A stretch of 64,000 nucleotides of DNA. Origin: Amoebophrya sp. A120. Its lineage: Eukaryota > Protista > Dinoflagellata. Under the pieces are notes generated by a model. It saw nothing but the letters and a program-made list of their open reading frames with translations. It made no database searches and was not told where the DNA came from. Each line of letters starts with the position of its first letter. The stretch's first letter is position 1. The position numbers and the translations under genes were made by a program. Shown in pieces: positions 1,519-60,200 of this stretch. The stretch spans positions 62,001 through 126,000 of the forward strand of contig CAJINV010000020.1 of the NCBI GenBank assembly GCA_905178155.1, given 5' to 3'.

Positions 1519-4277
1519 TTAGCTCAGTTTTCGCTTAGTATCTACCCGCATCCATGAGTGGAGCAGCGCTGATGTCTCCTGCTCCGCCTCCGGAAAATCG
1601 ATAGCAGCGTCTTCTCGCGGCTCAGGATAGTAGTTCATTTGTTGGAGCGAAGAAGAATCTACTCCGGGCGTAGATGTTGTTGCATTTGTGCCGTTTACTT
1701 CGACGTTATTTCCCGTGGTACTGCTAGTATGATCTTCCCTATCTTCCGCTCGCATCTGCTCTGCTGCAGCTCCTGTAGAAGTAGTTGCGGCCGCTCCAGT
1801 CAAACCAGCTTCACCGCTCGCACCCGGAGAAGTACTGTCGTCCTCGACATCGACTATTTCATCAGCTTGTGCTGCTTCCCGCGCCGCACGACCACGGCCG
1901 CTGTTCTGCTTTTCACTTTCGCTTGAGGAGGACTTCCCGAAGGCAGCCCCCGCGGACTCCGTCAAACTGCCCGGGAAACCGACAGATGCACGCGGATCCG
2001 ATCTAGTATTGAAGTTGATGCTGGTGTTCTTCTGAGCTGCAGTGCTGCTACTCGCCGGCTCATTTAATAACGCTACGTCTGCCTGTTCCTCTTCTTCGTC
2101 ATTCGCATCCACCGGGACCACCACGGTAGTTCCCTGGTAGAAGTTCGGGCCAGTTTGTCGATTACCGAAGAAGGACGCTCGGTTTTTCGAAATCCGCACC
2201 TCTGCCTCGATCGACTGCTGCGTCACGATTGCGCCCTGGGACTGCTGCAGCAACACGTGGTCGTGCAAGATATAAGCCGCGCAGAGCGCTGTGAGGTGGA
2301 TTCCCGTGGGCCACCAGGAAAACGCGAACGCCGGCACGTTGAAGAGAAATCCGGCGAGAAAAATGCCGAACAGAACCCCAAAAGGCACCATCAGAAACTG
2401 CACGAAAACCACGTGCCCCTCGCGGAAATAGCCCGGTTTGTACAGATGCGCCAGTTCCTTCTTCTCGAAGTCGTTGAGGCGCAAGGCAGACTGGGTGTGC
2501 AGCAGCTTCTCCCCGATCTGGGCGAACGACAGAGACCCGCTTTTCTTCGACTGCCGCAGGTCGTTTTCCTCGGCTCTCTCCAAATCTAGAAATTCCTGCG
2601 GCTGAATCCGCAGCACCTCCCGCATGAAGATCCCGGGCAGGCTTTGGTCGATATTGAAAGGAAAGATCCCCCCTCCCCATACCGAAAAGGTGCGTCACAT
2701 AAAATTTGCGATGCTGATTTGTGGTCACAAATCGTGTCTGTCTTGCAAGAAGGCAACTCCGCAGGCTCCGCCGCATTATGGAGGCGGTTTGTGATGCAGT
2801 TTGGCCTACAGCGCAGACGTTTCTCATGCCAAGCGCCTAGGCCAAAACCTCTCTAATCAGGCTTGATGTAGGCCTGCCGTCACCTTCAGCAAGACAAATC
2901 TGATTTGTGTACGCAAATCCAGCATCACAGATTTCCGCTTTGATATGGGGAGGGGGGATTTTTCTTTTCGATAGCCGATCCCGGTCAGCGCCACCGTGTT
3001 GATGCACATGCAGCCCCGTATCAACTGTAAAAATGTCTGGGTCTGGAAGATTGGAACTTGTGATGCTAACTTTGGACTCTAGAAAAATCTGTATTGCATG
3101 ACCAGCAAGAGGAGTCTAGTTTGTGCTACGCGGGGAGGGCGTTTGTCATGCGGAGTAGGCATCAGGAAGCCCTCTCAAAATCTGTGATGCGCGGTCGTGC
3201 ATTACAGACGTCCTGGGTCATGCAAAACATGCATGACAAATCTCAGAATCTTCCAGACCCAGACATCTTTACATTTGATACCCCGCCCCGTGAAGTGATT
3301 TTGGATGCCGTTCGTGATTCCGGTGAACACAACCCCCCAGGGGAAAATTGACGAGTCGTCCAGAAACGAGGAGAAATAGTGGGAGGTAGACAGGGATTCC
3401 AGCAGAACAGAAAGAATCGCGAACAGCATCCCGGCGTAGAACCGGTACGTGGTGACGTATTCGCTGACCGCCGCGCCCGCCACACAACTCAGCACGGCGG
3501 CGAGGGAATTGCGGGCGGGAATGTGCCGCGCGTCCGAGGAATATGCATTGCAAATATAATGTCTGGGTCTGGAAACTTCTGATGCAAGGAAGGGAATAGT
3601 GAAAACATTGTAATGCGCTGCCCAGCATGACGAGTTTTGCCGTGGTTCTGAGTTGCGTACTCCGCATGAGAAACTGCGTTTTTGCATGACAGACAAGAGG
3701 AGCTCTTCCTGGCCCCGCAATACAGACTGCAGAGTCATACCAAACTAGCATGACAAATCCCGCAATCTTCCAGACGCAGACTACATATTTGCATTTGATA
3801 AGGAAATGCGGTTCGCCATTTCCAAATCTCGGTCCTCCATGATCTCGTGCCAGTTGCCCGGGCGAAAGTCGTCACTGATGCTGACGCCCAGCTTGACCAG
3901 GTTGCCCGTAATCGTGCCGGAAAAAATCCCGTACCGCCACAGGTACACCACATTGCAAAACGCGGCCGCGCTGGCGAATAGAAAGGTCAGAAACCAAAGC
4001 TTCTGGGCGAGGTTGCGCGACCACCTGAGGTTTGGAAGAGAGCAGGAAGAGAACTTATTATGGATACAGTTTTTATTTGATCACTTTGCTTTTGGTTTTG
4101 ATTTTGTTACGCCTACTCAACAAACACGTCATGCATCGATACAATACACGAGCGAACGCGGGGACGACTCATTCAATATTTTTTCATTTTCAGTACTTAC
4201 CTGTTATTCGCGTTCGAAAACAGCAGATGCTGGAGCTTCCCGGGCTTCACAATCGGGTGATAGATGTCGTCTACCAT
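1519..4277 (-). CDS. DUF1275/YoaK-family membrane protein; 1 GT-AG intron (4025-4200) and 3 introners
   Basis: Spliced model MVDDIYHP...AAAFCNVVYLWRYGIFSGTITGNLVKLG...GITNGIQNHFTGRGCMCINTVALTG...; the F-S-x-x-TGN-LG and G-x-QN...T-x-x-x-TG motifs are typical of DUF1275; frame is continuous after removing the elements. Confidence 0.75.
2652..2973. mobile_element. Introner, family B (TATC..GAAAAATCCCCCCTCCCCATA TIR)
   Basis: ~30-bp TIR; flanks gtcga/gccga (1 mismatch); removal of element+5 nt gives TGI(D/G)QSLPGIFMR in frame. Confidence 0.9.
3019..3280. mobile_element. Introner, family A (TATCAAATGYAAAAATGTCTGGGTCTGGAAG TIR)
   Basis: TIR; perfect flanks ccccg/ccccg; removal gives FTGRGCMCIN. 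Confidence 0.93.
3542..3800. mobile_element. Introner, family A
   Basis: TIR; flanks aggaa/aggaa; removal gives EMANRISSDARH. Confidence 0.93.
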
Positions 4278-4942: not shown

Positions 4943-6224
4943 TCACAATTTCAAGCGAAAATAAGCCTCAGAATCGTAAGCCGGGATCCCGATTTCCGTG
5001 GAGGAGAGCCAGCAACAGCCCGTGAGCAACTTCGTATCGACCACGCTGCTGTGCACGAGTAGGACGCCGGCCTCCTCCGAGACCCGCCAAACGTTGCATA
5101 CGGTGTCCTCCGCGCACGAGACGAGCAGTTCTTGTTTCGGATTGAAGGCCAAACCGGTTATCCAGCGGGCGTGCGCGGCGATCTCGGCGAACCGCTCCCG
5201 CGCTGCGATCGTGTACACGATCAGCCGACCGCTGCCGAACCCGACCACCATAAAGGTGCCGCCCGTGGCGCAGATGTTAACAGGAACGTCTTCGAAAGAG
5301 TCCTGGTGGAGTTTGCTCATCTGGATCCGCTCCCCGGGCGTCGCCACTGTCCACCACAGAATACTACCGTCCTCGTGACCGACCACGAGCTCGGAAGAAA
5401 GTTGCTGCTGGCCTGTTAGTTTTGTTATAGGTAAAGCCGCATTACAAATCTAAGTGCCAACTAGTAAGTATTGAAATTTACACGACTAGGGTGAGACTTT
5501 TGCAATGCATACAGCTACAGCCGGTACCATTCTCCGCCGTCGCGACCATGCTCATCCTGCTCGCGTGGAGGAAGTTGACACATTCGAGACACGTTACCCC
5601 CGACGTGTGTGAGGGAATATTTTCCGACAAATTTGCGAAGTTGTTCGGGTGTCGGTAGTCCACCAGTTGGACCGTCCCCCGGTGGTCTCCGAACGCCAAC
5701 ACTTCGCGGTTCGCGGACGGTAGCAGCGCGCAGGCGGCGCGGTGGGAGGAGAGTTTCTCGACAAAAGCGTCCGAGTTGTTGCCTTGTTCGGTGGAAACCA
5801 AATGAAGCAGAAACGAACCGTCCTCGGAGTAAATCTGCGTGCCGCCCTGGAATCCCACGCAGAGCAGAAATTCGCCGGAGAGCAGGCGAACATAGCGAAG
5901 GTAGCTGATCGGGCCGGAAAGCTGGGGACCGCCGAAGGAACGCTGCTCCGCGGGGTGCAGGAAAATCACCTGGTAAGAGGGAAGATGTGTGCGATTATAT
6001 GATCTATCATCAAGTTCAAGGCGAGAACTACGACCTCCACCAAAACATAAACAAATCAAAAGATGATAACATGTCGATCTTGCAATGGTACACGCTAGTA
6101 TAATTCACACCTTATTTCTGGAGGCAAAAGCGGCCAAGTTGTCGCTTGCTGTCATGTTGTTGTCTAGCAGGGAGGGCGAGGTCCCGCATGGCTCCGAGGT
6201 TTGCGAAAACGCGGTTGCAGCCAT
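4943..6224 (-). CDS. WD40-repeat protein, WDR54-like; two canonical introns (5970-6110 and ~5413-5530)
   Basis: N-terminal SPSLLDNN, VVGHEDGSILWW, AAHARWITGLAF...LLVSCAEDTVCNVW; exact donor of the second intron not resolved. Confidence 0.7.
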
Positions 6225-6849: not shown

Positions 6850-9800
6850 CTATTCCGGCGGCCTGACGTGTGCTAAATACGTCAGAAAGCCCGCGGACAA
6901 CTGCGTCCGATGCTGTCTTTGCTTTTCCAAGAACCCCCGGAGCATCAATTGCCAATGTGTGAAATTCGGGAAGACCACAGAAAGCACGCTTTCTGCTTCT
7001 TCCTCAGGCGAAGGGATAACGTCAATACTGGAGTCCAGTCGTGTGCCCAGAATATATGAAGGAGCGGAATTCATCATCCCAGAGACCACCTCCGCTGGGG
7101 ATTGATTTGGATTTCTCGACAATTTCTCCTGCAGGATGTCGGTCTTTACCGTGTGGCAGCGGTTGAACTTGAATCTCAGGACCCAGTCATTTTCTCGTCG
7201 CGGGAGCGGCTCTCGTCGGGGGACTCGTGATTTGCTCTTGCTTTGGTTGTTCCGTCTGCTGTCTTGTTGAAGTTTTAGAAGCTCTTCGTCTTTTTCTGTT
7301 TTCCCTTCAATATTTCTGGACGTTGCGCGGCTTCTTTCGGACGTCGTGTCTTCATTATCTGTCCCAATATCGACCGAAGTGTCGACAGTATGGAGTTTTG
7401 GCGTTGCGTCTTCGAAAGTAGAATCTTCTCGCTGCGACTGCTCGCCCTCGTCTCCTTCATCTGCAGTGGTCTTCACGACGTGTTCCTTACTAGTACCAGT
7501 GCGTAATTCATCCGAGCTTGCAGATGTCAAGCGGCCTGCAGTTGCAACAAGCCGCACGACCTCCTGCTCTGCTACTTCCAATTTTTTGATGTTTCCGTCT
7601 GCATCGAACAGCTCGTCCCCATCTTCGGGTGGATCAAGACCTAGTTCGGCCAAGCTTGATGCTGGCGTTGCATCTTCCAGGGAGTTGTGAGATTCTTGCT
7701 GCTCCCCAGTCGCTTGGCGTTCTCTGGAAGGATGCTGGTGCACAGTAAAAGAAACAGACGTCGACTCTTCTTGACTTTGGTCCTGCCTTTCTGCGTCGGC
7801 CGCAAGGAACGCGTCCAGTGCGTCGTCGTCAAGCTCCTCGATGTTGCGGAGAGTCGCGAGCCGGCTACTTACCTGTGAGTGCGAGGACGATTTTCAAGTG
7901 GTTTACTTTTCGGTACAAGAAGGAGAACTTGTTCGTACAGCACGTATTTATGCATATGCTAACATACTAGGCGACGTCCTTTATCACTATAAAAGAACAG
8001 CATCCAACTAACTAGTACTGGGTCCATCGCGTCAGCCTCCAAAAGGTTGCTCGGGTAGTTGGAACTTTCCTTTTGTTCTGCACCATTCTCCTTCGACGAT
8101 CCAGTCCTGACTTCGATCGCCCGACTCACGACCGGCGGGGTGATTCCGCCCGTGCTGCTGGCTCCGTCGCCCAGCAAACCTATATCAACTGCAAAAAAGT
8201 CTGGGTCTGGAAACTTGTGATGCAAGTCCGTGAACAATAAAGTGCTCTGTCATGCGCCGCCAAGCATGACAAGTTTTTTCGTAATTCTGTGCTGCGTATT
8301 TCGCATGAGAAACTGCGCTTTTGCATGACAGGCAAGAGGGCCTCTTGGTGGCCACGCAATACAGAGTGCAGAGTCATGCTAGACTAGCATGACAAATCTC
8401 GCAATCTTCCAGACCCAGACATTTTTGCATTTGATAACCTAGGTTTTGCAGCAGTATCTTACTAGTGTTGTCGTTGTAGTTTTTCGGGCGGGGCGGCGAC
8501 GGCGGCGGCGGCACGGTGGTGACCGCTAGGAGAGACCAGAACTCTGCCAGGGAGAAGCTCTTGCTGGGAAAGTAGTCAGACGGGAACTGGAGTTCCAGTT
8601 GCAAGATCGGCTCGACGAAGACGGGAACGTAGACGTCGTTTTTTACCAAGCACAGCACGAAGTTGTGGCCAACGTCGTCGAGAAACGCCGTCATTTGGAT
8701 TTTATCGTCTTTGATTTTTCCTCGGTCATGTTGTTCAGTTGTAGAGCCAGGCATTCTAGTACTAGGAGATGTAGACGTAGCTGCCCAGTTTGCGCTCACC
8801 TGGTTGGCTGGCCCGGATCGGGAGTGTGGAATGGAGAAATGATGGACGTATCAAATGCAAACATTTCTGGGCCTGGAAGAATGCAAGTTTGTCATGCTTG
8901 TCTCGCATGACTCCTACATTTGTCATGCACGTTACCCAAGCGCTCCATTTTTCTGTCATGCAGAAACGCAGTTTGTCATGCAGGATAGGCAACACCTAGA
9001 AGCCCAGAAACTTGTCATGCTGAGCCAGCACTTGTGGCCTCATCATGATACGCCACCAAGCATCACAAGTTTCCAGACCCAGACATTTTTGCAGTTGGTA
9101 GGACGTGGAAGAAGTCGATAGTGCTTGATGTGGTTCCACCCCCACTTGATGTTCGAGAACCTCCTGAATGCTGGAAGGGATAGCCTTCTTTGGGAATTTT
9201 CGTCGCTTGCAGGCTCTCGATAGAAGTACTGGTCGTGGAGATTGCAGCAGCTCCACCCGGAGCCGTCGAGCTACCGTCTACTACTTCGGTCAGAGAGGAA
9301 GTTGTCGGAGCGGAAAGAAGAAGATTATTCGACGAAACAAAATGACAGGAAGCAGAAGACGAATTAACAGCGCTGGGGGTTGCAATCCCTGATCCCACCA
9401 TTTTCCCCACCGGCGTCCCCGTTGGCGTATTGACTTTTTGCAGAGTTCCCGGACTCGGCACAAACTTGTTGCTGGGCGTCGCCACTCGGCTCGCGGGAGC
9501 GAAACCAGCATGCTGGGATGATGATGGTCGTGCTTGTTGAGAATTACTATGTGCACCACCTGTTCCACCACCACCTCCGAGCTGCTTTATTGTAAGCTCT
9601 TGCTGGCTTGTCCCAGTGGTCTGCTCCTCTTTGCTTGTTTTTATTTCCGGTTGTAAAAACACCCGTGGCAGCGTCGGGGGTAGAGAACGTGCGGTCGCAG
9701 CTGCTCCCTTGTTGATGCCCTTGATCAGATACCGGTCCACCCCCCGCTCGGGAACTACAGGCTTTATTTCGGTAGGAGCTTTATTCTGATCTTGTCGCAG

Positions 9801-12800: not shown

Positions 12801-15800
12801 ATGATTCTTGTTCGCCTTCTGAATGTCAGGCGTGGTCCGATTCTGATGAAAAACCCCGTCGTTTTCCCGGGACAACGCAAATTGCTGCCAGATGCTCGTT
12901 GACGACGAACTCCCAGTGTAGGACCGCGTTTTCTTGTTCGATACACTTGCATTTGACGTTGATCCGCCGCCAATCATGGTGTCATTGCTCAGGACAACGA
13001 CAGCTGTGTTAGCGCCTGTGTTTTGCTTGTCACTTCTATCACCGTGTTCTTGTTTGCCAGGCGGCGACAACACCGCTCCTCGCGTCTTCGCCAGTTGTTC
13101 TGTGCCGGCTTTGTTTATTTCGGCGCCAGAGGAAGTGTGTCCCCCGCCGCCTACGGTCAAACTGGGGGACGACGGAGGCAGTAGGAGATTGGCTGCGGAT
13201 ATAACAGCGCCGTTTTCAAGAACTACATCTTCCTTTCTCTCTAGCACACTGCCGGTGTCAATGAACAGCAAGCTGCGGAGCAAAATCGTTCTCACGACGA
13301 ATGTCATGGCAATCTCGATGAAAATCTCGCCGAGGAGCTGCTGGGGCATGGTTTCCAGCATGTCGGTGATGAAGCTCAGCTGCTCGCTCCAACTTCTGTA
13401 CTGCTGCGAAATCTGCTGTTGTACTTGCTGCTGTATAGAAGTTGTGGAGGGGATCATGTTGCCCATGATGTTCATGCCCCCTCCTCCGGAAGTGGCACTG
13501 CTCGTTTTATTTAAACCGCTGATCCAAGTAGAAATCAGAAGCAAAAATATCTGGGTCTGGAGGAATGCAAGATTTGTCATGCATATTTCTCATGACCCAT
13601 GATGCCTGTGATGCATGACATAGCATCGCAGACTTTTAGAGGCCTTTGTGATACCTCTACCGCATGAGAAATGCCCTATCCGTGTAGCACAAATTGTACC
13701 CCTCTTGCTGGTCATGCAATACAAATTTTTTTAGAATCCACAGACAGCATCACAAGTTGTGACCTTCCAGACCCAGACATATTTGCATTTGATACTAGAG
13801 GCATTAGAACAACTTTGCCAGCACGCAAACAGCTGCTCGCGGAGAAGATATCCTGTGCAAAAGCATCGCACTCCTATAAATGCAAGTCTTGCATTACAAA
13901 TTTTTTTCTTGTAAATCCACATGACAAATTTTATTTCTCATGCTGAGGAAATTTGTAATGCATTTATACGAGTACGATGCTTTTGCAATGCATAGCAGAA
14001 CACACGTGTCGATGAACAGTGCACAGCAGTGGGCGCGAAACCAGGACGACATAGTCGGGCTTAGCAGGGGTTTGCTGGTGACAGTGACTGAGGCTGCGGT
14101 TGTACTTCCCATAAGCAGTTCCTCCGACGTTTTGACGTCCAGCTCTTGGAGCAAATTTAGCACGTACAAGCACGCGTGCTTTGCCTTGGTATTGATCTGC
14201 GCTGTCGGACAGTGGATCAAGGCGATGCTCTATCCCATGGAAAAACGTCCCCACCAAATTTGCATGCTCACAATGTTTCTCATGCAAAGCCCCATGGCAG
14301 GCATTTTCTAGTCGCGTTTCGGGATTTGTATTGCTCCAATCAGCATAATAGCCTATGTCTGTGATGCTGCTGAACAAGCTAAACAGGGCGACAACTACTA
14401 GGCCAAACTTGTCATGCGTAACAACCAAAGCTGGCTGATTTGTATAGCAGATTTCCCTTCTTGACTATGTGGTGGGGACGTTTTTCCTCAGGATATGCTC
14501 TGCGTGAAAACCGGAAGTTTCGCGATTACCTCCTGCTCGTTGAAAAACAGTTGGAAGCAGTCCATCTCATTCAACGCAAAAGCATCGCAATCCTAATTGC
14601 AACATTGCATGACAAATCTACCTTCTTAGCTGAATCAGCATTACAAGCTTGATAGGATTCTTTTTTCTGAGAAAAATTTGTGATGCAATTACTCCTAGTA
14701 CGATACTTTTGCAATGCATAAACCTCCTCCGTCAGCAGCTTCGCGAAGTTGCACAGCAAGGTCGCGATGCTGGCCACGATCTGTATTGGAATTGGTATTC
14801 TTGACCTTGCGACGCATTACAATTGCTTTATTTTATTTCTCTGCATGGTTTGACTGGCAATGGCTTCCAGCATAATTCGCTTTCAAAAATAGGTCTTCAA
14901 CCGACGATCTACGCAGGCGTGTGCTGTGAGGTGGTCTCTTTTTGCAACAACCGATCACAGCAGCTGCAAATAGAAGAAGAGGAGAAAATTGCAATCATCA
15001 ATGGTATAGTAGTTAGAATCAATACTTTTATACGTCGGCGTCCTGGCCGCAAAGTCGCAAGTCGACCATGCAGACCTGATTGAGAAAGAAGTTTGACTGC
15101 AAAAAGGTCATCAGCACGGACCCTGGTACCGCATGCGTCAGCAAGATCTGGGTTGTCTGGATGATCTGGTGCCACACAGGCTCCAGGGCGGAAAACGGGA
15201 GCTGCGGATAAATAGCACCAGTAGAACTACTGCTGTCTCTACTTCTTCCGGGATGATGATCTCTTGAGGTCGTTGTGCTGCTACTGAAGGGTGGCAGTGC
15301 AGCATTTCCTGCTATCCCTAGCATAGATCTGGAAGTACTTGTGTTTGTTCCAAATGTTGATCTTCCCAGCATCTGAGTCGTTGGGTTTGTTTCGTTTCCA
15401 CCGGCAAGCAGTGCCGTTCGGTCGTCGACTGCGGGAAGCAGACATAGATTCTTCAGACTTCGGAAGAACTGGTAGCGAACCGCAAGTTCGAAAACCGGCC
15501 CCGTCTCGATCACTGGACCGGTTAGCCCTGATTTTTTTTTGCATGAACATGAACAAAGCACTGGTCTTCGTACAAGAACAAAACTTTGTGGTCGTCCTCG
15601 TATCTATCGAGGAAGAAGATCATGTGCCTATGTAGTACTAGTCCATACATATTACAACTCCTGCAGCTGCAAGACTCCATAAGCATGTATAATTGTACCT
15701 TTCGCCTTCCAGCTCCTCTGTGCCTCTTGCTGCTCGTGGAGCAGTAGTTCCCCTACCTTTTGGATTGCGTGCACCAAATCCCGCGCGACTTATCGCGAGG

Positions 15801-40400: not shown

Positions 40401-40746
40401 GTGATTATCGACGAGAGCGCCCTTTTTAAGATTCGTGCCTCCGTTCGATGACGCGGTGCCTTGACCTCTCGTCGAAGCCGAGGCACTGGTGCTCGATGAA
40501 CAGCTGCTGTCTATCACAGGAAAAAGTGTTAACGTTATACGGTTTTGTTTCATTCATAGATTGCAAAAATGCATGACAAATTTTGCCTAGCATGCATGCT
40601 AAGCATCACAAATTCAAATTTTGGCACGGTTTATTGGGATGCATTTCTGTATCACAAATTCCGTTAACGTTAACACTTTTTCCTGTGATACTCTCCTCGC
40701 TGGTATCATGACTGCTAGCCGAGGAGGTGTGGGGGTAGTTATTCAT
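31472..40746 (-). CDS. CCR4: CCR4-type deadenylase (EEP domain; no LRR seen, Cys/His N-terminal domain) with PAM2 motif and long low-complexity tail; 9 introners plus canonical introns
   Basis: WNILADQY...YPY...LAWDYRKHLILQEI...ADIVTLQEV, EGCATFWK, CNTH, CGDFNSTP, YTNYTENFKGTLDYVWFS, PSDHIAL; frame continuous after element removal. N- and C-terminal extents depend on these joins. Confidence 0.9.
33678..33983. mobile_element. Introner, family B-like
   Basis: Imperfect TIR; flanks acgtg/acatg; removal gives QSH(T/M)SQIPQLMAQQ. Confidence 0.82.
34501..34763. mobile_element. Introner, family A
   Basis: TIR; flanks ttttc/ttttg; removal gives FLR(Q/E)NGEKRKK. Confidence 0.9.
35536..35854. mobile_element. 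Introner, family B
   Basis: TIR; flanks cacgg/cgcgg; removal gives SENRAKALAAKK. Confidence 0.87.
36032..36283. mobile_element. Introner, family A
   Basis: TIR; flanks cgcga/cgcga; removal gives LLAVLAISKVD within the CCR4 catalytic domain. Confidence 0.94.
37604..37813. mobile_element. Introner, family E-like (GAARAAACTGYTTCACTGTG)
   Basis: TIR; flanks gatta/aatca; removal gives the conserved YRKHLILQEI. Confidence 0.85.
38801..39008. mobile_element. Introner, family E (TATC..GAAAAAAGTGTTA TIR)
   Basis: TIR; flanks tgaaa/tgaaa; removal gives SCYFHPHKMG. Confidence 0.92.
39323..39601. mobile_element. Introner, family B2
   Basis: TIR; flanks agatg/agatg; removal gives SYQHLQGT. Confidence 0.9.
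39644..39964. mobile_element. Introner, family B (opposite orientation to 2652-2973)
   Basis: TIR; flanks cgacg/cgacg; removal gives LQDVGGASP. Confidence 0.93.
40512..40690. mobile_element. Introner, family E
   Basis: Perfect 25-bp TIR tatcacaggaaaaagtgttaacgtt; flanks ctgtc/ctctc; removal gives TSE(E/D)SSCSS. Confidence 0.9.
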
Positions 40747-46899: not shown

Positions 46900-49800
46900 T
46901 TATTTTCCTGATAAAGTACTCATTCTGTACTTGTAGTCTAAGCGGAAATCGAAATTCGAATCGAAAAAATCATATTTGCTCATAATCCGTCCTGTTCGCC
47001 GACATATCCTATCGGGATCCAGGTCTTCAGACTGTAGGCGACGGCATATGGATTGCAAATATCCCTGGGTGTGGAAGAATGCAAGTTTGTCATGCTTGTC
47101 TGGCATGACTCGAGAGTCTGTGTTGCATAGGCACGAAAAGGGGCTCTTACCTGTCACGCTGCAAGAACGCAGTTTGCCATGCGGAATACGAAACACATGG
47201 CAGCCAAAAAATGTGTCAACATGCATAGCTGCGTATTGCAGTGCGTCTATCATTTCTTTTATAGCATTACAAGTTTATTCCAGATCCAGACATATTTGCA
47301 TTTGATACGGCGTTCACCCGATTTACTATTTCGTGCGTTCCTGCTCGTTTTTCGTTTTCCTCGCTTAGTTGAGGTAGAGGAAGACGTACGATCCACGTAA
47401 GGCAGTCGTGTTGAGGAGGAGTAAGAGTAGTTCTTGGCGAGACGACCTGTAGGTGATCGTCGTCGTCGAGGTAGCACGATTTGCTTCGAATACCACTTTA
47501 GTAAAAATGCATGATTAAGATTTTTATTTTCTACGAATGATCCCGAAAGAATGTGGTAAAGGAATGAATATCTATAGGGAAAACAAACCGCAACAGGGTG
47601 AGAACTCGTCAGCTCTACTGTACGAGAAACAACACAGCAGCGAGCTGCCTGGCTCCTGCCGAATTATACTTTCTTACCCAAAGATAATTTGCACATCTCG
47701 TGGACTGGCGCGTGGCTGGTTCCTGCTCTCCCTCGTCTCGCGTCGTTCCTTCGCTTGATCTCCGGCACCGAGGTAGTACCAGGAGCGGCTATCAAAAGTA
47801 AAAATGTCTGGGTCTGGAAACTTCTGATGCGGGGTGGCGTCTCATGATGAGCCTACAAATGCTGTCTCAGCATGACAAGTTTCTGAGCTCCTAGGTGTTG
47901 CCTATTCTGCGCCACGAACTGCGCTTCTGCATCGCAGAAAAACGGAGCTCTTGGGTAACGTGCATGACATTGGCGGTCTACCGGCAGGACGTCCGGCAGG
48001 ACGTAGACGGACGGGTAACGTGCATGACAGATTTTATGCACTATCCGCAGATGGGTCATCCTGTGGGATGAGCAATTCCTTCTGCGGAGAAGTTAAGGCG
48101 CCCGAATCATGGAGCGCCAACCCCTCTCCTGCCAGAAGAAAGCAGAAGCAAGGGTCTCTGTCCGTTTATAGGCACGAGACCGCATGAACCATCCGCAGAC
48201 CAGTGCAAAACGATACATCCCCCGAGGGGGTGAACCAGGCTGGGAGGGTGGGGAAAACTAACAACAGGCCCGAGGGCCATCTTCACACACATACAACTTT
48301 CTCAGGTTCTGGCTACCGTACAACATGCTAGGGCGGGGCCGATACATAAAATACCGCCCGCCCAGCCTCAGCCTTGGCTCACAGGCTCGCAAGACTGCTG
48401 CTGCCCGGGCATACATTTAAGAGTCATGCCAGACAAGCATGACAAACGTGAATTCTTCCAGACCCAGACACTTTTACAGTTGATAGCGTCGTTCTTTCGC
48501 ATCTCCGGCACCGAGGTACCAGCGGCTATGCATTGCACATATGTCTGGGTCTGGAAGATTCCGAGATTTGTCATGTTGGAAGGCTAAGGGCAGGGCGTCC
48601 CATTCGTTTATAAACTTAAAACGGTAGCCACCTACCCAGCAAACTCTGAGTGGAACAAGCACGGGCAAAGCGATTTGTCATGCAGTTTTTCAAGCTCCGC
48701 CAGGTCTGGAATGCAGGGCCTAGCATCACAGGTTCTGCAGCCCATTGGTGATGCCTATTCATTCTGCATGAGAAATGCCCCCTCAACATGGCCAGAAGTG
48801 GGGACCTTTTGCAAGTCATGCGAACCTGTACAAACGGGCACCCCTGACGGTACGGGCCCTCTTATACACAAAATGTACATGAGTAAACACGAAAAGTGTA
48901 CAAAAAAAGACCGAAATTGTAGAAAAGAGAAGACGGACGGTCCTGTGCAACCGGGCACCTCCGAACACGGATTTGTATAGAAAATAGCGAAAAAAGAGAT
49001 GAAGTCAGAGCTGGAAGATGTGAGTGGATAGCGCGCGCGCGCGCGACTTGATGTGAGTGGGAACACGGGCGCTGCAGAGCAGGGCGGGGAAGTGAGGGCA
49101 AAATAGCTTGAAAGAGGGGCAAATGTATTCATCTAGGCGAGCGACGTGCTTGGCTATGGCGGCGCCGTGCTCACGAAGGCCTGTAGATCTATTGATGACG
49201 GGCCCGGTGGCTGCGCGCGGCGTGTACATAGTCATCATGCAGAGTTGGGCCCTGTGCAAAACGGACCGACCTGTTAATCACGGGGCCTCCGGAGATTACC
49301 GCCGGGCCTGTGTATTTGGTAACCCTGTACGGTGCGAACGGGTACCTTTGGCGGCACATACATTTGTATAAAAAATGCAAATTTCGTTTGTTTTCCAATA
49401 GCATAATTTGTTTGCAGGTGCCTGTTTGTACTGGGGGCCCCGTACAGTACGGGGGCTCCGTTTCCACTGATACACATGCAACACAGATTTTTGTATGATC
49501 CGCAACACGCATCACAAGTTCGGATTCTTCCAGACCCAGACATTTTTACATTTGGTAGCGTCGTTCTTTCGCATCTCCGGCACCGAGGTACCAACGGCGG
49601 TCGTCGTGGAACGACCAGTCTTCACGGTACTCCTACGCAGTAGTCGCAGCTTCTCGTCCTCGTCTGTATGCATTGGAAAGAACCACTTTGTGTCCGGGAC
49701 TGGATGAAAGTGAAACTCGTGTTGATGCTGCGTCGCGAGGAAAACACATTCGTAGAACGCCACAATTGACGGGCCACGGCTCAACAGCATCACAAAATTT

Positions 49801-50341
49801 TTAGCTTCTAGGATTTTTGTCTGAATTCTGCACGAGCATGACAAAGTGCGTTCTTGAATAACAGAAAAATAAGGTTTTTGGATCAACTACACGTGCATGG
49901 CAAACCTGCGATTCATTTTCATGCTAGCCGAGGAAGACAAATAACCCTGAATTCTTAATATTCTTCCATAACCCAGCCATCTTTCCATTTGATAGGCTTC
50001 CTCCCCCGCTGACGACGCTGAAAAGTCATTGCCCCAGAGCTGCGCACCGGTGCCGGTAAACCTTTTTTTACGTTCAAGATGAAATAAGCGTGCTCTATTT
50101 GTCGTGCTAATTTTTTAGACCCGTCAAGTCGTGTTATTGAATGCGTTACCAAAAAGGTAACTCTTCGATGGATATACTTTCTGTAAAGCTTCCGTTTCAG
50201 CTTCGCCTCGGTCCATTCTGACATGCGCTCCATCTTCTCCGGTCCACTTGAGCAGTAGCTTATCGGTGCATATCGACTGCAAAAGTATCGTAAAGTGTTG
50301 GTGTAGTGGGTCGAAGTATACTTGAAAATCATGATGCACAA
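46900..50341 (-). CDS. Hypothetical multi-exon protein with a 12-aa tandem repeat; 5' extent unresolved
   Basis: In-frame joins across introners at 47047, 47790 and 48527 (GTSVPEMRKNDA repeats; GERRRLQSED); no domain recognised. Confidence 0.5.
47047..47307. mobile_element. Introner, family A
   Basis: TIR; flanks cggca/cggcg; removal gives SGERRRLQSED. Confidence 0.88.
47790..48485. mobile_element. Introner, family A, enlarged (696 bp) by an internal insertion
   Basis: TIRs intact; flanks gcggc/gcgtc; ends are homologous to 8849-9100 in reverse orientation; foreign sequence ~48030-48415. Confidence 0.85.
48527..49557. mobile_element. Introner, family A, enlarged (1031 bp) by two nested insertions
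   Basis: TIRs intact; flanks gcggc/gcgtc; backbone colinear with 34501-34763. Confidence 0.87.
48826..49474. mobile_element. Nested element with subterminal IRs and 3' hairpin (Helentron/HINE- or MITE-like)
   Basis: gtacaaacgggcacc (48828) / ggtgcctgtttgtac (49417-49431), followed by hairpin ccccgtac-a-gtacgggg; absent from the sister introner at 34501. Confidence 0.55.
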
Positions 50342-51479
50342 TTAAGTACTCGCTCCTACTTGACAGATTTCTTAAATTCTTTTTAAACCTCAAGAAGTTG
50401 TTTGAAAACTTCCAAATTCTGTATGTAGCGACTTATACCACGCACCAGTTCTACGATATAACTTTGTTTTGTGCTGCATAAGGATAACGCACAATTGATT
50501 GTTTCATCTTCCAGCAAGTGCGGCACCCGTTGTTTGAGCTCGTCCCGACCGGTGGCGTTGTTTGACACATAGTTCGCCAGGTGGTGCAGACTCAGCTCTA
50601 CTGTTCCACCACGAGCGCGGCGGTCTCCTGCGTTCGGTATGGAACTCTCAAACCACGTTACACTCTCAACTGTTACAATGCAAGAATGGCAAAAGTGAAA
50701 GGAGGAAGATTGCCATTGCGTCTTTTGCATTACAGATTTGAGACGGTGGATTCTAGTCCTATTTAGCGCGTCGAGAAGTTGCCATGCGAAGAAGGCTTGA
50801 TCGTGTGCTGTGAAGAGTCAGAGTGATTGCATGACAAATCATGTAAACAGTTGAGAATGCAACGTTTGAGAGTCCCATATTCGGGGCGGCTGAAATATCA
50901 CCAGGCCGACGTTGATCTTCTTCCACGCCCGGGAAAACCTCCATAAAGGCATTATTACCTGTAAGTAAAGGGTAAAAGAATATATCACTGCCTATGGAAT
51001 GGCGAACGACACAACCAAAATCCGCCTGGTTCTTCTAAGACCACGAGCTCCAGGGACAGGTCGGAAAGAAGCATCCAGCTCCTAACTGAGAATAAAAAGC
51101 ACCAGCGCAGACCCTCTCCTAGTTATACCCGGCGCGGCCCCAACGCCAAAAAGAACTCTCCACCTAGAAGTCCCGGTGCCGAAATAAACGCCCGTCGTCA
51201 GGCCAAGCTGCCAAAAAGTGAACAAGAACTCTGAAAGCAGTCAGCAACTCTTGGCAGAGAAAGGCTGCAGCTAGTACTGTTGAGCTGCTCTGGGGAAGGT
51301 ACGCTGCAAATTTCCCCCGGCTGGGGGAAGGCCTCACAGGCATTTCCCACCTCACTGGCTATTTGCTACCGCAAACTTGTTTCCCCCGCTGGGGCAGGCC
51401 CTCACGTGATCCTGCGTGCCATGTTCACGTTCACTCGCCGTCGCCACACAGGCTGCAGCATGGAGCTGCATTAACTCGG

Positions 51480-53820
51480 TTATTGTTGTTGTATAAATAT
51501 AGTACGTGTTGAAGTTGATGTTGACTCCTGCGCCAGATGAAAATGATGAAAAATAATTTCATGTGGATTATTATACTCACCGTAGCCTCCAAAAGTCAGC
51601 GTGCAGTCCGGCGAAGATGAATCAGTATCATCTCCGAGGCTGCTCGTCCTCTCGACCAGCATGAGCGGCGTCGTGGGTACTGGTTCTTGCAGCTGTTGTT
51701 CTTGGTCATTATTACTACTATTCATCTCGTCCAGGCGGCTGCGACCAAAAGTTGGTGTGGAAAGAGAGGACTTGTCTTCATCTTCCTCCATGATCTTCGT
51801 CGATGATTCGAATTCCTGATCTTGAGATTTATTTTCTTCGATTACGGGCTTCATGACTGCTGTTGTTTTGCATTCCTCCTGGAACAAAACAAGAGGCTCG
51901 GTCGAAGGCGAGACGTGCTGGCCGACTACGACGTCGCCAGGCATGCATCCTGAGCAAAAACGTCCGCAACATCCTAGAGTGCTTCGATCATGCAAAGCTG
52001 CAAGCTGCCCATAGCGTTTCGCATGCGCAGAGGCAGACCGCCACGATCAGCGCACGCTAATGCTATCTGAGAGTTTGTCATGCAACAATCAGCATGCAAT
52101 AAAAAGGGAAAAAATACCTATCTAAATCCTAAAACCCTAAGTCGTGGAACGCAATTGCCCGGCCGGGGCGGGCGAAGAAAAGTCGACGATGAAGCCAAAA
52201 TAACTAGCATGAGATGATCGATTAATGTGACGCGGCGGAACTACTTGCTAAACGCGACTACGTATATTACGAGCCCAATAAACTTGTCATGCGTATCAGC
52301 CAAAATTTGCCGATTTGTGTACTAGCAAAATCACCATCTTGACTCTGGGGAGGTAGGGACGTTTTTACCCGGGATAGCGTGTTGACGTCTTCTTCGCTCA
52401 ACAAGCTGCTGATGCTGAGGCTGAGGCTGCCGTAGCTGTTGTCTCTGTTCATTGGTTTATTGCTCCTGCTCGGAGTTGTCATCTGCTTATCTTCATCGGG
52501 CATGATCAAGACTGGGGTGAACGGCGAGACGAAGAGGGGGTCAGTGACCAGAGGCATCACTGCGCTTTTCTGGTGGTGGTCAGAAGTTCTTGTACTGGTT
52601 GTATTATTACGACTCTCCTCTCCTTTGAGCAGGACGCAGCTGCAATATGAGAGTCCACAACTCCGCCCCCTCGATCCCCCTATTACTATTTGTAATCAAT
52701 GCATGAACAGCAGTAGACGTGGGAGCATCGGCAAGAGAAAAACGCACTTTTTGCATGACAAATTCACACAGGATTGTACTTCTGTTTGCCCTGCCGGCAC
52801 CTGTCATACAAACACTGCTAGGAGAGTAGCGAAGGGTTTGCCTTTGCGTTTGGCTTTTTGCATCACAAATGTATGAGAAGGAGGGGGGGTTGTGCTTGTG
52901 CACCACTCTCATACGTGGTAAGCTGGAGATTCTAGGTCTTGTAGCTGAAACGAAGACAGTGGAGTTCTTGAAAGTGGTACTTCGAGTTCTGGAACTTGTT
53001 CTACCTTCTGCACACCTCCAGGAGCCACGCCTTGCGAAGTAGTTGATGGTGATGTTGCTACTTCCGGTTCCACCGCCATGCTGCTGTTACTGCTGATATT
53101 GCTGATCCTGTCGTCTTGCAATTCCTCCTCGTCTTCGCTTGTTGTACTATAGCAGTGGTTGTCACTAACAACTTCTGTTGTTGTCTCATTCACGACGCCG
53201 GAGGACAAGCAACGGCGAAATATCCACTTGTGGGCACGACGGATGAAACAAGTTCTCGTGCGGTCGCGCACCTCCTATACACTGCAAAATTATCGTACCC
53301 GTAGTTCCCGTAGTACTTAATAAAAATTGAGATAGATCAATTATGCGTGACATCAAGCACCAGTCATCTGTGTCTGGTAAATGCGCATGACGAATTCGAT
53401 TTTTGCATTTGCGAAAAAATGTAAGTAAAAATGTAATTCATGCTAGCACGATACTCTTGCACTGCATACCTTCTCGGATGCGTATCAAATGTAAAAATGT
53501 CTGGGTCTGGGAGATTGCGAGATTTGTCATGCGTTGTTCGGATCACGCAAATGGCGTCTGATGCAGGCAAAAGCATCACAGGTTTTGAGCACGCCTCATG
53601 ATGCCTGTCGCGCATGAGAAACTTCCTACTTGCGTGCCAAGAAATGGACAGCTTTTGGCGCTCATGCAACACAAATTTTTGTGTGTTCCAAAGTTTGCAT
53701 CACACGTTCCAACCCTTCCAGACCCAGACATTTTTACAGTTGATAATGCGAGAGTATGTGCGAAACTCTTCGCCGCTTCAATCATCGCCGCTTCGCCACC
53801 CATTTTGCTCCTGATGTCAG
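51480..53820 (-). CDS. Hypothetical low-complexity protein fragments (multi-exon, 5' end missing or unresolved)
   Basis: Coding-like segments 51480-51990, 52300-52645, 52914-53271 and 53746-53820 joined across introners. Confidence 0.35.
52646..52913. mobile_element. Degenerate introner (TATGAGAGT TIR), flanking repeats lost
   Basis: tatgagagt..cacaa / ttgtg..actctcata; internal gcatSacaa motifs; removal of element+5 nt joins ORFs 52909-53271 and 52267-52560 in frame. Confidence 0.6.
53483..53745. mobile_element. Introner, family A
   Basis: TIR; flanks atgcg/atgcg. Confidence 0.92.
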
Positions 53821-53875
53821 TATGCATTGCAAATACCCATCTGGGTCTGGAAGCGTGCGAGTTTGTAAAAATGCT
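53821..53875. mobile_element. Orphan family A terminus
   Basis: tatgcattgcaaatacccatctgggtctggaag with no matching cagacccaga end seen downstream in the window. Confidence 0.65.
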
Positions 53876-56420: not shown

Positions 56421-57249
56421 TCAGGATAAGATGCTGATAGGAGCCCGCGGACGGGGATGCGCCCCCGACGTATCAAGAGGAAAAATTCCCCCTCCCCATA
56501 TCGAAACGAAGTTTCTGATGCTGGATTTCCGTACACAAATCAGATTTGTCTTGCAGTAGAGGACTGCGGGCATATGTCAAGCCTCGGCCGAGAGGTTTTG
56601 ACGTAGGCGCCTAGCATGGCAAACGTGTATGCCTTAAGCCCAACAGCATCACAAACCGCCTGCAAAATGCAGGGGGCTCTCTGGACTTGCCTTCTTGCAA
56701 GACAGACAAGATTTGAGGTCACAAATGTGCATCACAAATTTTCAGACGGATGCGTTTTCAATATGGGGAGGGGGGATTTTTCTTTACGATACGACGTCCT
56801 GGAGCAGTTGTGCGGTCGAAGTACTGCAGGATATCGTGGACGGGGCCTCGCTGATGTTGCTGCTGTACTTGTTAAAGTTGTTGGACGCTTGGCTGCCGCC
56901 CCCATGCGTCGAACCTCCTTGCTGATTTTGCGATATGCCGCGCTCGAGCAGCATGGAGGAGGACGTTTTGATGTTGAACTTGAGGCTTTGCAAAATGTCC
57001 ACCGGCGGCGACTGCGCCTCGTTACTATTAATGTTGCCGTTTGTTGTTGTTGCACTAGTTCCGTTTCCGGGCAGGAGATTTGTGTTATTTCCTGAAATTG
57101 TGGTACTTGCTGATGTTGTGGATGTTCCTGGACCACCTGGACCGGCACCGGGTATGTTGATCGGGTTATTTGCATTATTTCCCCCGCCGCCCGGAGGTCC
57201 TCCTCTTGTCCCCACGGAGAGGTTGATGTGACTATCGAGAGCACCTTTT
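56421..57249 (-). repeat. Duplicated copy of 39594-~40426 (CCR4 5' region), flanked by a 30-bp direct repeat
   Basis: Near-identical sequence including an unspliced introner; DR ttcacgttctcgccgtcaKtcccatgcttc at 56393-56422 and 57248-57277. Confidence 0.93.
56471..56791. mobile_element. Introner, family B (passive copy of 39644-39964)
   Basis: Same length (321 bp), same cgacg flanks and same exon context. Confidence 0.93.
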
Positions 57250-60200
57250 CACGTTCTCGCCGTCAGTCCCATGCTTCCGCCGCTGCCCTGCGTGGCGCTG
57301 AGGTCGGTTCGCCCGGCGGTGACCGCCTTGACGGCCGTCAGCGTGGTCTGGGCCTCTACCAGCGCGGACGCCTGCTGCTTCTCCTTCTGCACCCGCTTGC
57401 GGTCCTGGTACATCAGGTAGACCGCAATGCAGACGACAATGGAGTAGGGCAGGACTCCCAGGCAGATCCCGCCCACCGCGCAGGCGTACACCCACCCGTC
57501 CGCTAGACCGTCGCTGTCCGCGTAGAAAATCACGAAGAACCGGTTCTGCAGCCGGTTGCCCTGCAACCGCTTCACGATAACGGTGTCCAGGAAGAGGTGG
57601 TCCTTGATGCCCTGCAGCTGCTGCGCGGAGGTGACGGCGGAGAAGGACGCCATCTCCCAGATTTTCTGGAACTCGATCACCCCCGTGTTTTTCAGCGAGA
57701 GGTCTACCAGGATGGTGCCGTCGTCGGCGACGAGGAAGCCTTGGTAGTCCCCGGGCAGGAAGTGCGGGTCAACCAAAGAGTCTTTCAGCTTCTCGATCTC
57801 CAGCGTGAGTTTGCCGTGCAGAAAAACGCGGTCCTGCTCCGTCAAACCCTCCACCTCCTGTCGGTGCATCTGGCTCGCGTCCAGCTTGAACAACAGCGAG
57901 ATGGTTTGGATAGTGTCTACCTGCTGCGAATCGATGTTCACCTGCGTGTCGCCGGGACTGCTGCGCTCCGGCAGTTTGAGCTCCCACTCGGTGTAAATAC
58001 CCCTATCAAATTGGTCACTCAGGAACGGCGCCGTGGTAGTGGAAGTTGTCGTGGAAAAGAAGTCGTGCAAAGTTGTCGTGACGCCACCCTGCTGCTGCCC
58101 AGATAAACCTCGCTCGACCAGATTGTGCGCGTTCCGGTAGGCGAAGTGGTTCGCTTGGTAGGGCAGACACACAACGCCCGGCGCGGACACGCTCGGGGTC
58201 ACCAACTGCTGGTTTTGGAGTCGTTGCGCCGTCTGCGTGTACCAGAGCGCCGGGTGATTCGTGCTGTTTGTCAGATTGGAACTGCTCTTTGCCAGCTGTT
58301 CTAGCGACCCGCATTTCTGCGGACAGCTTTTGCACTCCAGATCTTTCACCTGCGCCCGCAGCGCCTGGTATTGCTGTCGGTACTCGTAGTTCCGCAACTC
58401 TAACGGGAGCGCGATGCCCGTCGTACTACTTCCGTTCTTGGCCTGCTCCAGGATGTACTCCTCCCCGAGCACGGCGACCACGGAAAGCAGGTCCGGGTAG
58501 TGCCCCGGCGGGCAGAAGTAGGAGCTTCTTTCCGGGCCCGCGGGCCCGGCCCCCGTGTTCGGGCTGATCCGCTGAGCGTCCTCTTCTTCGCTGCCCGCCG
58601 GCGGCGCCGTGGTCTCCGGCGTCTGGTCGTCGCGGAGAGGCAAAATCCCGGCATACATCTCAAAGGGCATCTTGTTCAGCTTATGGAAGTGTGAGAATCG
58701 AAATCGACAAAGTGAAAGTTCAAATACTTTCTCATGCATAAATTCTAAAGCATGAAGCGCCTCTCTTGCAGGGATGGCAAGCGAGGCCAACTGTCAGCCT
58801 GTTTATTGGCGTCTATGCGATAGAGCTGCTAAGTAAAGCAGCATGACAAAAGACGCGCTCTTTCCCTAAACAGTATGACAAACTGGATTTAGGTGGTGCC
58901 AAAGTTTGTCATGCGCCGCTTGGAAATTGGGCTTCCAACTGGTATCGATTCTATGCATCACAAGTTTTCAACTTTATCGATTTCGATCCTGACGCTCCCA
59001 TGATACAGCTCCAGTGCGCTGTTGTTTACCATATCCTCGTGGTGGATGTTATTCGCGCTCATCGGCGGCACCATCGACGAATCCCGGTTCGCGAGCGTGT
59101 GGTCATTCAGCACGCGGCGGTCAGCGCGTTGGTGTTGCTCTTTATCCTCCACCGTTCTCGTGCCTCCATCACCGTGACTTGCGGCGATTTGTTCACTAGA
59201 AGATGTAGAAATCGTGTGGTCTCTACTCTGATCTGATGCACCGGTAGAACTCTCCCCCGAAGTCGTGGTCCGGCGACGTGCGCGCGCCCTTTGTTCGCCC
59301 GGCGTCGCCCCCTCGAGTGCAGCTTCTAGTCCCATCATCTGCAAACCGGGCAGCATGATTGGGGCATCGAACGCACGCACCGCGGTCAACGGGTCGGCTG
59401 ACAGGCGAAACACGTTGTGCTTCTCCAGCCTATCAAAGTGAAAAAAGCCTCCACCCCATATCGGAAACGGAAGATGCGCGAATTTGTGATGCTGTATTTG
59501 AGTACACAAATCGACTTGTATTGCTAGAGGACCAAGAGACTAAGCTGCGGCCTACATTGCAGGTAATCTGTCATGCTGTTTCCCACTTCCAGTTGCCTCC
59601 TGTCATCCTGGAGCTGCAAGGCTTTCCCAGCACGCTAGACAGCACTACAGTCCGCATCTTTTGCCTTCTAGCATCACAAAGCTGATTTGTGACCCCAAAT
59701 CTGCATCACAGATTTCCGTTTTGATATGGGGAGGGGGCATTTTTCATTGTAATACAGCCGCTCCTTTGTCAAGTCCACCTGCATCAGTCGCTGGTGCCAA
59801 TCCGCGTTTGCGATGGAGAGGTTCCGATTGCAGGCAAAGGGCTCCGCAATACACGAGGGGTACAGGTCGCTCTCAAACTGCAGCATGTCGTAGGTGCCGA
59901 TCCGGCGGAACCGCATGCCGCCCCGGGTCAAGCTCAGGTCCTGCGTCTTGTTCGGGACGAAGTAGGCCATCTGCAGCATGCTGAGCTCCGGAACCCCGGA
60001 GAGTCCGGCCAACACGACGATCTGCAGCGAGAAGAAGTCGAACGGGTTCCGCAACGCGCCCAGGGAGATCCCGTGAGCCAGGGACTCCACCGGAACCATC
60101 AGTTTTCCCTGCACGTACCCGTCGAAAGCGGCCTCGATGCGCGCGGCGCCGCCGTGCCTGTGGGGAAAATAATGGTCGTGGGGGGTGAGAGGTGAAGACC

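Follow-up and report, generated by a model that had tools for sequence, protein, structure and literature searches.

The window, by which we mean the whole 64,000-nucleotide stretch of Amoebophrya sp. A120 DNA analyzed here, carries 33 short elements bounded by terminal inverted repeats (TIRs) (Table 1). Amoebophrya is a parasitic marine dinoflagellate relative, and the best protein relative of the window is in Amoebophrya sp. A25, at 47% identity. Together with elements from 669 kb of related loci, the window elements make up a set of 519 copies in 13 TIR classes. TAT termini and 5-bp target site duplications (TSDs) are common to all families; among the 72 class A elements identified from their TIRs only, 61 were flanked by an exact 5-bp TSD and none by a 6-bp duplication. 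A run of A near positions 10 to 15 occurs in most classes (it is weak in C, H, and I), and extended homology connects D1/D2/D3, J/K, and B/H. The initial annotation had called the TIR families unrelated, which these common features show to be not wholly so. In the DNA-like run X5, summed depth reached 6,000 to 158,000 over bins containing elements, compared with about 30 elsewhere, indicating high copy number.

Table 1. Elements of the window, with one related intron; motif sites and pairs are given by position and strand.
Feature	Coordinates	Motif sites or pairs	Remarks
Introner class B	2652..2973	pairs 2710/2742 (-), 2793/2825 (-), 2893/2926 (+)	
Introner class A	3019..3280	pairs 3062/3093 (-), 3203/3235 (+)	exact 5-bp TSD
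Introner class A	3542..3800	sites 3688/3721/3752 (+)	
Canonical GT-AG intron, likely decayed element	5412..5526 (-)	9-mer at 5439	class E TIR remnant ~15 nt inside donor; skipped in contigs
Introner class A	8183..8436	pairs 8219/8251 (-), 8327/8360/8391 (+)	
Introner class A	8849..9100	sites 8893/8924/8957 (-)	
Introner class A	13533..13794	pairs 13578/13610 (-), 13720/13751 (+)	
Introner class E	13849..13994	4 sites; no pair at threshold	
Introner class F	14231..14495	pairs 14330/14363 (-), 14413/14444 (-)	
Introner class E, older	14569..14720	pair 14611/14642 (+)	left end approximate; added by hand
Introner class B	15791..16123	pairs 15855/15887 (-), 16045/16078 (+)	no strict 9-mer; added by hand
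Introner class C	16175..16480	pair 16301/16333 (-)	
Introner class B	21580..21919	pairs 21630/21663 (-), 21731/21763 (+)	
Introner class G	33678..33983	pairs 33808/33841 (-), 33905/33936 (+)	spliced with one TSD (311 nt)
Introner class A	34501..34763	pairs 34546/34578 (-), 34688/34719 (+)	spliced (268 nt)
Introner class B	35536..35854	only degenerate sites	spliced (324 nt); no strict 9-mer
Introner class A	36032..36283	pairs 36076/36107, 36200/36233 (-)	spliced (257 nt); orientation opposite to 34501
Introner class D1	37604..37813	pair 37747/37778 (+)	spliced (215 nt)
Introner class D2	38801..39008	7 sites; no pair at threshold	spliced (213 nt)
Introner class F	39323..39601	pairs 39374/39405, 39535/39566, all (+)	spliced (284 nt); sites antisense in RNA
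Introner class B	39644..39964	three pairs	spliced (326 nt)
Introner class D2	40512..40690	pair 40575/40607 (+)	skipped (184 nt)
Introner class A	47047..47307	pair 47091/47122 (-)	
Class A element with internal insert	47790..48485		696 bp
Class A element with inserts	48527..49557	pairs 48679/48710 (-), 49482/49513 (+)	1,031 bp
Decayed unclassified element	49667..49994	3 sites	ends approximate
Introner class I	50638..50879	3 sites	
Class F element	51946..52376	2 sites	431 bp
Decayed B/H-type element	52646..52913	3 sites	TSD now mismatched
Diverged class E element	53276..53468	1 site	no strict 9-mer
Introner class A	53483..53745	pair 53670/53701 (+)	
Introner class B	56471..56791	three pairs	segmental duplicate of 39644-39964
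Introner class C	58682..59005	pairs 58733/58765 (-), 58845/58877 (+)	
Introner class B	59431..59754	pairs 59488/59520 (-), 59675/59707 (+)	

All nine elements between 33500 and 41000 are skipped in RNA-like contigs as the element plus 5 nt, that is, with one duplication, and the spliced product carries an open frame of 1,435 codons. These contigs come from runs X1 to X4 of one sample; their RNA status is presumed, and the same contigs skip 7 GT-AG introns. Removal occurs in RNA rather than in DNA, since the DNA-like X5 contigs, in the 15 of 1,105 joints listed, continue into the TIRs; programmed DNA excision is thus unsupported. The raw RNA run X9 matches only TIR pieces. A GT-AG reading is possible for just 11 of 244 elements, yet removal is exact, so GT-AG ends do not explain the splicing signal of the elements.

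In the sections of PMC7789003 (Farhat et al. 2021) and PMC12130899 (Gozashti et al. 2025) drawn on here, A120 introners are described as having a TAT start followed by a less conserved stretch and an A-run, inverted repeats, short direct repeats (3 to 5 nt at the boundaries of A120-type introners), non-canonical splice ends, and many families. The window elements match this type in their TAT and A-run, TSD, non-canonical removal, high-copy families, and lengths of about 110 to 340 bp. The same sections attribute only terminal repeats to A120 introners; the internal motif, its pair spacing, and its phasing are added here.

The motif GCATBACAA, which the initial annotation had proposed to be shared across TIR families, occurs 67 times on the two strands of the window, compared with 2.02 expected and a maximum of 6 among 100 shuffles, and so lies well above background. 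Sixty-three of the copies fall within the 33 elements, giving a density of 6.19/kb inside elements and 0.074/kb outside. Six of the ten positions originally cited for the motif are exact and four are one base off (correctly 16215, 16432, 38954, and 40603). Its reported scarcity in exons was borne out in RNA-defined sequence by the proposed comparison of introners with exons and canonical introns: the 9 element introns (2,382 nt) contain 16 strict copies, the 9 canonical introns (1,404 nt) a single one, and the 17 exons (3,971 nt) none. Across the 519 elements, the 9-mer proved to be the stringent version of a more permissive site, GCAWNACAR. The motif also emerges as the top cross-family 8-mer, present in 12 of 13 TIR classes. 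Profile sites number 5.13 per element, compared with 0.22 in shuffles; at least one was detected in every window element, 30 of the 33 also carrying the strict form.

The 9-mer is present as claimed, but the true unit is a pair of sites. Spacing between same-strand sites has a sharp peak at 31 to 33 bp; head-to-tail pairs are present in 399 of 489 elements, and their excess lay above all 200 randomizations in 8 of 9 merged family groups. Across 34 distinct pair modules the core columns hold about 1.6 to 2.2 bits and the spacer columns at most 0.7 bits. Length variants are modestly fewer in spacers (1.09 versus 1.59 per stretch). A weak extra TTGC recurs 9 to 11 bp ahead of the second half-site. 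The positional profile agrees with the earlier remark that sites often lie just inside the TIRs, as the first site is mostly 36 to 48 bp from the element end and the TIR spans about 30 bp. Outward-pointing sites are centered 36 to 37, 44 to 48, 59, 66 to 69, 78 to 81, and 91 bp from the end and are phased at 10.5 bp (R = 0.43, p = 0.004, with the 9 groups shifted independently); because the family groups share ancestry, such p values overstate independence. Inward-pointing sites showed weak phasing (p = 0.04, computed before class A/F assignments were corrected). The number, place, and orientation of pairs vary by family: some pairs sit mid-element, those of class E point inward, and in class I the 31- to 33-bp pair is nearly absent (2 of 15 elements).

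The motif shows no preference for either strand of the transcript. Elements with sites on a single strand divide 28 to 27 between the two transcript strands, and among the 325 oriented elements sense sites predominate in 126 and antisense sites in 148, the two being equal in 51, with a mild skew in class A (53:78). Elements of classes F and J carry sites on one strand only, yet occur in both orientations. On the basis of this symmetry, the motif is likely read as double-stranded DNA and not as a splicing signal. The earlier suggestion that it marks sequence for removal is unsupported at the RNA level, both by the strand split and by the exact splicing of 39323-39601, whose sites are all antisense.

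The motif is under purifying selection. Variants shared among copies occur in core bases at 0.29 to 0.30 of the context-matched expectation (p < 1e-17), a stronger depletion than in the TIRs (0.65), which speaks against common ancestry with neutral decay. Private variants in the core are less depleted, at 0.58 of expectation, and the least diverged copies are nearest neutral (0.70 to 0.77). In the 72 elements with mismatched TSDs, private core variants are still depleted (0.64 and 0.47); selection may therefore act on the core after insertion, beyond amplification. TSD mismatch failed as a clock, the background private rates being 0.0339 and 0.0335. The only duplicated insertion found (39644-39964 and 56471-56791) differs at 1 of 36 core positions and 3 of 235 others. 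In predicted canonical introns without element-like sequence there are 60 sites compared with 15.8 expected, and 5 pairs compared with 0.05 expected. Canonical introns with the motif more often begin with GTAT (26/52 versus 16/89, p = 1e-4), as would be expected of decayed elements.

We consider it probable that this selected, strand-symmetric paired site is a putative double-stranded DNA docking site shared by the machinery that copies introners. One protein, which could be a DDE transposase of the integrase-like kind or else a cofactor on which the transposase depends, would bind two half-sites cooperatively, three turns apart on one helical face and adjoining the ends, and would help to build the end-pairing complex. 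Copies that lose their sites would cease multiplying, so that every successful family would keep its sites while inner TIRs and spacers diverge; splicing would be a separate step in which the motif is not read in RNA. Since inner TIRs that differ by family, as they do here, are normally a sign of separate transposases, a cofactor may be the better candidate. The common-factor site postulated by the initial annotation thus stands as regards its independence of TIR family, given its presence in nearly all classes, its selection, and its fixed spacing over near-unrelated spacers; its transposition version is favored over a splicing helper. The bacterial recombination enhancers bound by accessory proteins, namely the Fis enhancer of Hin/Gin and the internal activation sequence of Mu, likewise consist of two phased sites at fixed spacing, internal and apart from the cleaved ends, although those are single copy, unlike introners.

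Subterminal repeats of miniature inverted-repeat transposable elements are bound by transposases (PMC1636448; for Ac/Ds, PMC3260210), and the motif described here resembles them in lying just inside the TIRs and in being conserved among amplifying copies. According to the portions of these papers used here, Lemi1/Emigrant and Ac/Ds resemble introners in that their non-autonomous elements carry, internal to the TIRs, a short motif repeated in both orientations; their repeats are bound cooperatively and required for mobility, binding in introners being putative. Their motif is tied to one common TIR, whereas that of introners spans 13 TIR classes as a three-turn pair and also occurs mid-element. 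One A120 family, which has TA..TA termini and a 5-bp TSD, was classed as Ginger-like and credited with integrase-related homology, as excerpted from PMC12130899. IS3EU/GingerRoot and Ginger-like elements, as far as the excerpts of PMC10045372, PMC6839031, and PMC12730594 go, share with introners TA..TA termini, TIRs of at least 30 bp, and no target sequence preference, but IS3EU/GingerRoot elements have 6-bp TSDs, in contrast to the 5 bp of window-type introners. According to the part of PMC7789003 consulted, the genome study of Farhat et al. (2021) detected no transposase in A120 and failed to find U1 snRNA. No autonomous element was found in the window or in the 669 kb of related loci, where the long elements, each present once, contain inserts and exceed 151 codons in no frame. 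An 813-bp element (L013:1537-2349) gave no transposase or integrase-DDE Pfam match in six short frames and one unrelated sub-threshold match; it is close in length to published family 38. In viral collections the TIR pattern occurred at 3 loci and the pair pattern at 53; as these loci did not resemble the elements, we took them as chance.

It is rather unlikely that the pairs are occupied, once an element has inserted, by a DNA-binding or chromatin protein of the host that tags the stretch for cotranscriptional removal, the motif making elements tolerable as introns. ApiAP2 and HMG-box proteins are, we presume, candidates for such a binder. Strand symmetry and helical geometry would suit any binder of double-stranded DNA; the unexplained splicing signal leaves room for such a mark, as RNA-compatible G-U pairs are no commoner than A-C among TIR mismatches (257 of each, a comparison of low power in that most arm mismatches are inherited); and both the depletion of private core variants and the persistence of sites and pairs in predicted GT-AG introns without recognizable TIRs are consistent with it. 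Against it, depletion is stronger for amplified variants than for private ones, and the copies that have diverged least lie nearest to neutrality; phasing to the ends of elements is a signature of the transposition type, GTAT starts are enriched among the canonical introns that bear the motif, and the element at 35536-35854 is spliced with weak sites only. A dual role, in which one host protein reads the three-turn pair, licenses copying across TIR families, and also flags exact non-canonical splicing, seems to us doubtful. We think it very improbable that the motif serves as a splicing code at the RNA level, acting through an RNA-binding protein or through pairing of opposite copies. It does occur in introns and is absent from exons, and classes A, B, C, and E carry opposite copies able to pair in predicted folds, but the even strand split, the class F and J elements in both orientations, the splicing of 39323-39601, and the DNA-helix values of spacing and phasing all argue against it. 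The equally improbable idea that the motif is a functionless relic of a single ancestor of all families could draw on the common TAT ends, A-run, and TSD, the homologies between classes, the weak TTGC, and a cross-group spacer identity slightly over shuffles (0.350 versus 0.301; 477 pairs), but it is largely refuted by the depletion of shared core variants, by spacers that turned over while half-sites and length were retained, and by the differing arrangement of pairs between families; ancestry may be the source of the motif's origin, not of its retention.

The 31- to 33-bp pairs, near-unrelated spacers, 10.5-bp phasing, and core constraint are new here. A120 carries roughly 30,000 introners. 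A conserved site of constrained geometry that their families have in common suggests that a single machinery serves them, in place of some 1,900 separate families. The paired site offers a precise bait, with inherent spacing controls, for catching the binding protein, and the motif is a TIR-independent marker of decayed introners among ordinary introns. If a dual-role host protein did exist, intron identity would be partly a double-stranded DNA code, kept as elements age into GT-AG introns.

The 9-mer GCATBACAA occurs 67 times on the two strands of the window, compared with 2.02 times in dinucleotide shuffles, and 63 of these strict copies lie within 33 introners bounded by terminal inverted repeats (TIRs), at 6.19 per kb compared with 0.074 per kb outside. 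Ten positions had been cited in the initial annotation, six of them exactly and four shifted by one base. Elements were identified with a finder blind to the motif, using TAY..RTA ends, arm complementarity, and a 5-bp flanking repeat with at most two mismatches; this gave 26 candidates in the window, compared with 0 to 1 per shuffled window, from which two were removed and to which nine were added by hand. A scan of 17 of the 64 parts of one metagenome assembly with the class A TIR recovered at least 148 loci (668,904 non-redundant bases), whose elements were up to 95% identical to those of the window; no gene region common to window and loci was found. The full set comprised 519 elements in 13 TIR classes (17 unclassified; 3 over 1,100 bp left out) and is skewed toward class A. 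In the loci, 989 strict copies were inside elements (8.0 per kb) and 350 outside (0.64 per kb), 274 of the latter within element-like sequence. The internal 8-mer with the broadest distribution was GCATGACA: in 12 of the 13 classes, at least 30% of the members carried it. The refined profile, GCAWNACAR with T-rich flanks, defines the sites discussed below, which numbered 5.13 per element (n = 506) compared with 0.22 in 200 shuffles. In RNA-defined sequence, the 9 element introns contained 50 sites, the 9 canonical introns 2, and the 17 exons 1; coding-like sequence showed no excess (84 versus 71 to 89).

The elements themselves are already known in kind, as indicated by their ends, duplications, exact skipping, and copy depth. 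The available text of the A120 genome paper describes introner ends of TAT, a variable stretch, and an A-run (PMC7789003), the same layout as in the window. Of 72 class A elements identified solely by their TIRs, 61 were flanked by an exact 5-bp duplication and none by a 6-bp one. Contigs of runs X1 to X4, which are from one sample and guessed to be RNA, skip all nine elements in 33500-41000, each as the element plus 5 nt, together with seven GT-AG introns, leaving an open frame of 1,435 codons. In the DNA-like run X5, summed depth was 6,000 to 158,000 in element bins, compared with ~30 elsewhere. The best relative of the tRNA-dihydrouridine synthase in the window was in Amoebophrya sp. A25 (47% identity, 94% coverage). 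In run X9 (raw RNA, same species label), 135 reads matched the class A TIR at 3019-3069 and the exons were unmatched, and the family is therefore also present in another strain or locus. Across all classes, TIR arms match almost completely at positions 1 to 3 and 11 to 13 and poorly at 4 to 8, which, judged from sequence, is a two-domain end design.

Same-strand sites were far more often 31 to 33 bp apart, about three helical turns, than at any other distance. After classes with extended homology were merged into nine groups, such pairs were present in 399 of 489 elements (24 of 33 in the window), and eight groups exceeded all 200 randomizations; group I, with pairs in only 2 of 15 elements, did not. 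Element copies are not independent, and the 34 distinct pair sequences in eight groups are therefore the preferable unit; in these, core columns carried ~1.6 to 2.2 bits and spacer columns at most 0.7 bits, with spacer identity across groups of 0.350 compared with 0.301 when shuffled. The pairs are polar, with the strict 9-mer in the downstream half in 61% of cases compared with 15% for the upstream half. Outward-pointing sites were centered 36 to 37, 44 to 48, 59, 66 to 69, 78 to 81, and 91 bp from the element end, with a phase coherence of 0.43 at 10.5 bp (P = 0.004, groups shifted independently) and similar results from 10 to 11 bp. Class E sites point inward, and some pairs are located mid-element.

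We favor, with some reserve, the reading that the pairs are docking sites of a copying machinery common to the families, either an integrase-like DDE transposase or a cofactor, which would dock head-to-tail at the pairs on one helical face adjoining the element ends. Such a mode of action would resemble that of the subterminal repeats of MITEs (PMC1636448, PMC3260210), but the pair here spans different TIRs with fixed geometry. IS3EU/GingerRoot elements share the TA..TA ends but have a 6-bp rather than a 5-bp duplication (PMC10045372, PMC6839031, PMC12730594); one A120 family with a 5-bp duplication and TA/TA ends has been classed as Ginger-like (PMC12130899, 38 of 58 A120 rows). The genome paper, in its available text, reports no transposase in A120 (PMC7789003), and our search of the window and loci (668,904 bases) found none, which counts against the docking-site reading.

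An unlikely alternative is that a host DNA factor marks the introns once they have inserted. Sites also occurred outside recognized elements. Of the predicted GT-AG introns, 141 had no element-like sequence; these held 60 sites (27 and 33 by strand) compared with 15.8 expected, and 5 pairs compared with 0.05 expected. The predictions are noisy, and one of the five pairs, in L030, is located in a wrongly called intron whose end is TIR-like. GTAT starts were found in 26 of 52 site-bearing introns and 16 of 89 others, as expected if a G plus the TAT end of an element had turned into a donor, and on sequence grounds the site-bearing introns look like aged introners. The remaining noncoding sequence was about twofold enriched in sites (226 versus 98 to 127).

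Pair-keeping introns and other individual loci in the window and the metagenome loci (L numbers)
Sequence	Position	Feature	Reading
L006	~2212-2345	apparent GT-AG intron without TIRs, pair kept	candidate end stage of introner-to-intron conversion
L044	4569-4742	apparent GT-AG intron without TIRs, pair kept	candidate end stage, as for L006
L051	2335-2517	apparent GT-AG intron without TIRs, pair kept	candidate end stage, as for L006
L063	3774-3937	apparent GT-AG intron without TIRs, pair kept	candidate end stage, as for L006
L013	1537-2349	813-bp class A element, 5-bp TSD; six short frames, no transposase match in Pfam	length close to published A120 family 38 (808-810 bp)
L019	11405-12270	866-bp TIR element, TAC..GTA ends, long TIR, own internal repeats; strict 9-mer absent	exception or separate system
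window	24000-30150	clear gene, element, and motif all absent; two three-copy repeats (~24219/25087/25838 and 27145/28452/30110); several arrays, some tandem and some inverted	may be a structural locus or a mobile element of another kind
window	39594-40500, 56421-57330	duplicated part of a CCR4-like gene together with its class B element (321 bp, 5 differences)	
window	47748-49600	~42-bp exon piece in three copies around two different class A elements, both of which contain an insert	resembles a tandem duplication in which elements recombined with one another
window	53821-56400	unaccompanied left TIR of class A at 53821, then ~2.5 kb without partner TIR; no match found in the loci	

It is very improbable that the motif is an RNA code. 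Host strand was assigned by a codon model, which was right for all nine validated elements. Of 325 oriented elements, 126 had more sense sites, 148 more antisense sites, and 51 equal numbers, and elements with sites on a single strand divided 28 to 27; class A, taken by itself, was skewed (53 to 78). Class A elements of both orientations are spliced from one transcript, as is a class F element (39323-39601) whose sites are all antisense in the RNA. On the transcript strand, G-U pairs were not in excess among TIR mismatches (257 to 257, n = 298 elements), and 11 of 244 elements could be read as GT-AG. The strand symmetry, together with the three-turn spacing, points to a motif read by a protein on duplex DNA.

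Equally slight is the chance that the motif is a relic. In 26 subfamily alignments (375 elements), with expectations from context-matched interior columns, shared variants reached 0.29 to 0.30 of the expected number in core bases, 0.65 in TIRs, and 0.82 at degenerate motif positions, with a mild bias toward conservation as sites were picked on the consensus; neutral decay of an ancestral sequence, the outcome set against the claim in the initial annotation, does not fit. Private variants in core bases were at 0.58 of expectation, closer to neutral in the least diverged copies (0.70 to 0.77) and still depleted in elements with mismatched duplications (0.64 and 0.47); they probably come mostly from unsampled subfamilies.

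Our literature search, which included the text and supplement of Farhat (figures outside reach), turned up no account of the motif or its spacing, and 12 of the 14 Gozashti 2025 supplements (names and one TIR word only) gave none either; prior notice is possible. The motif is a real, selected, and geometry-constrained cis-element of a known introner system, and it makes the mobilizer of the introners directly catchable.
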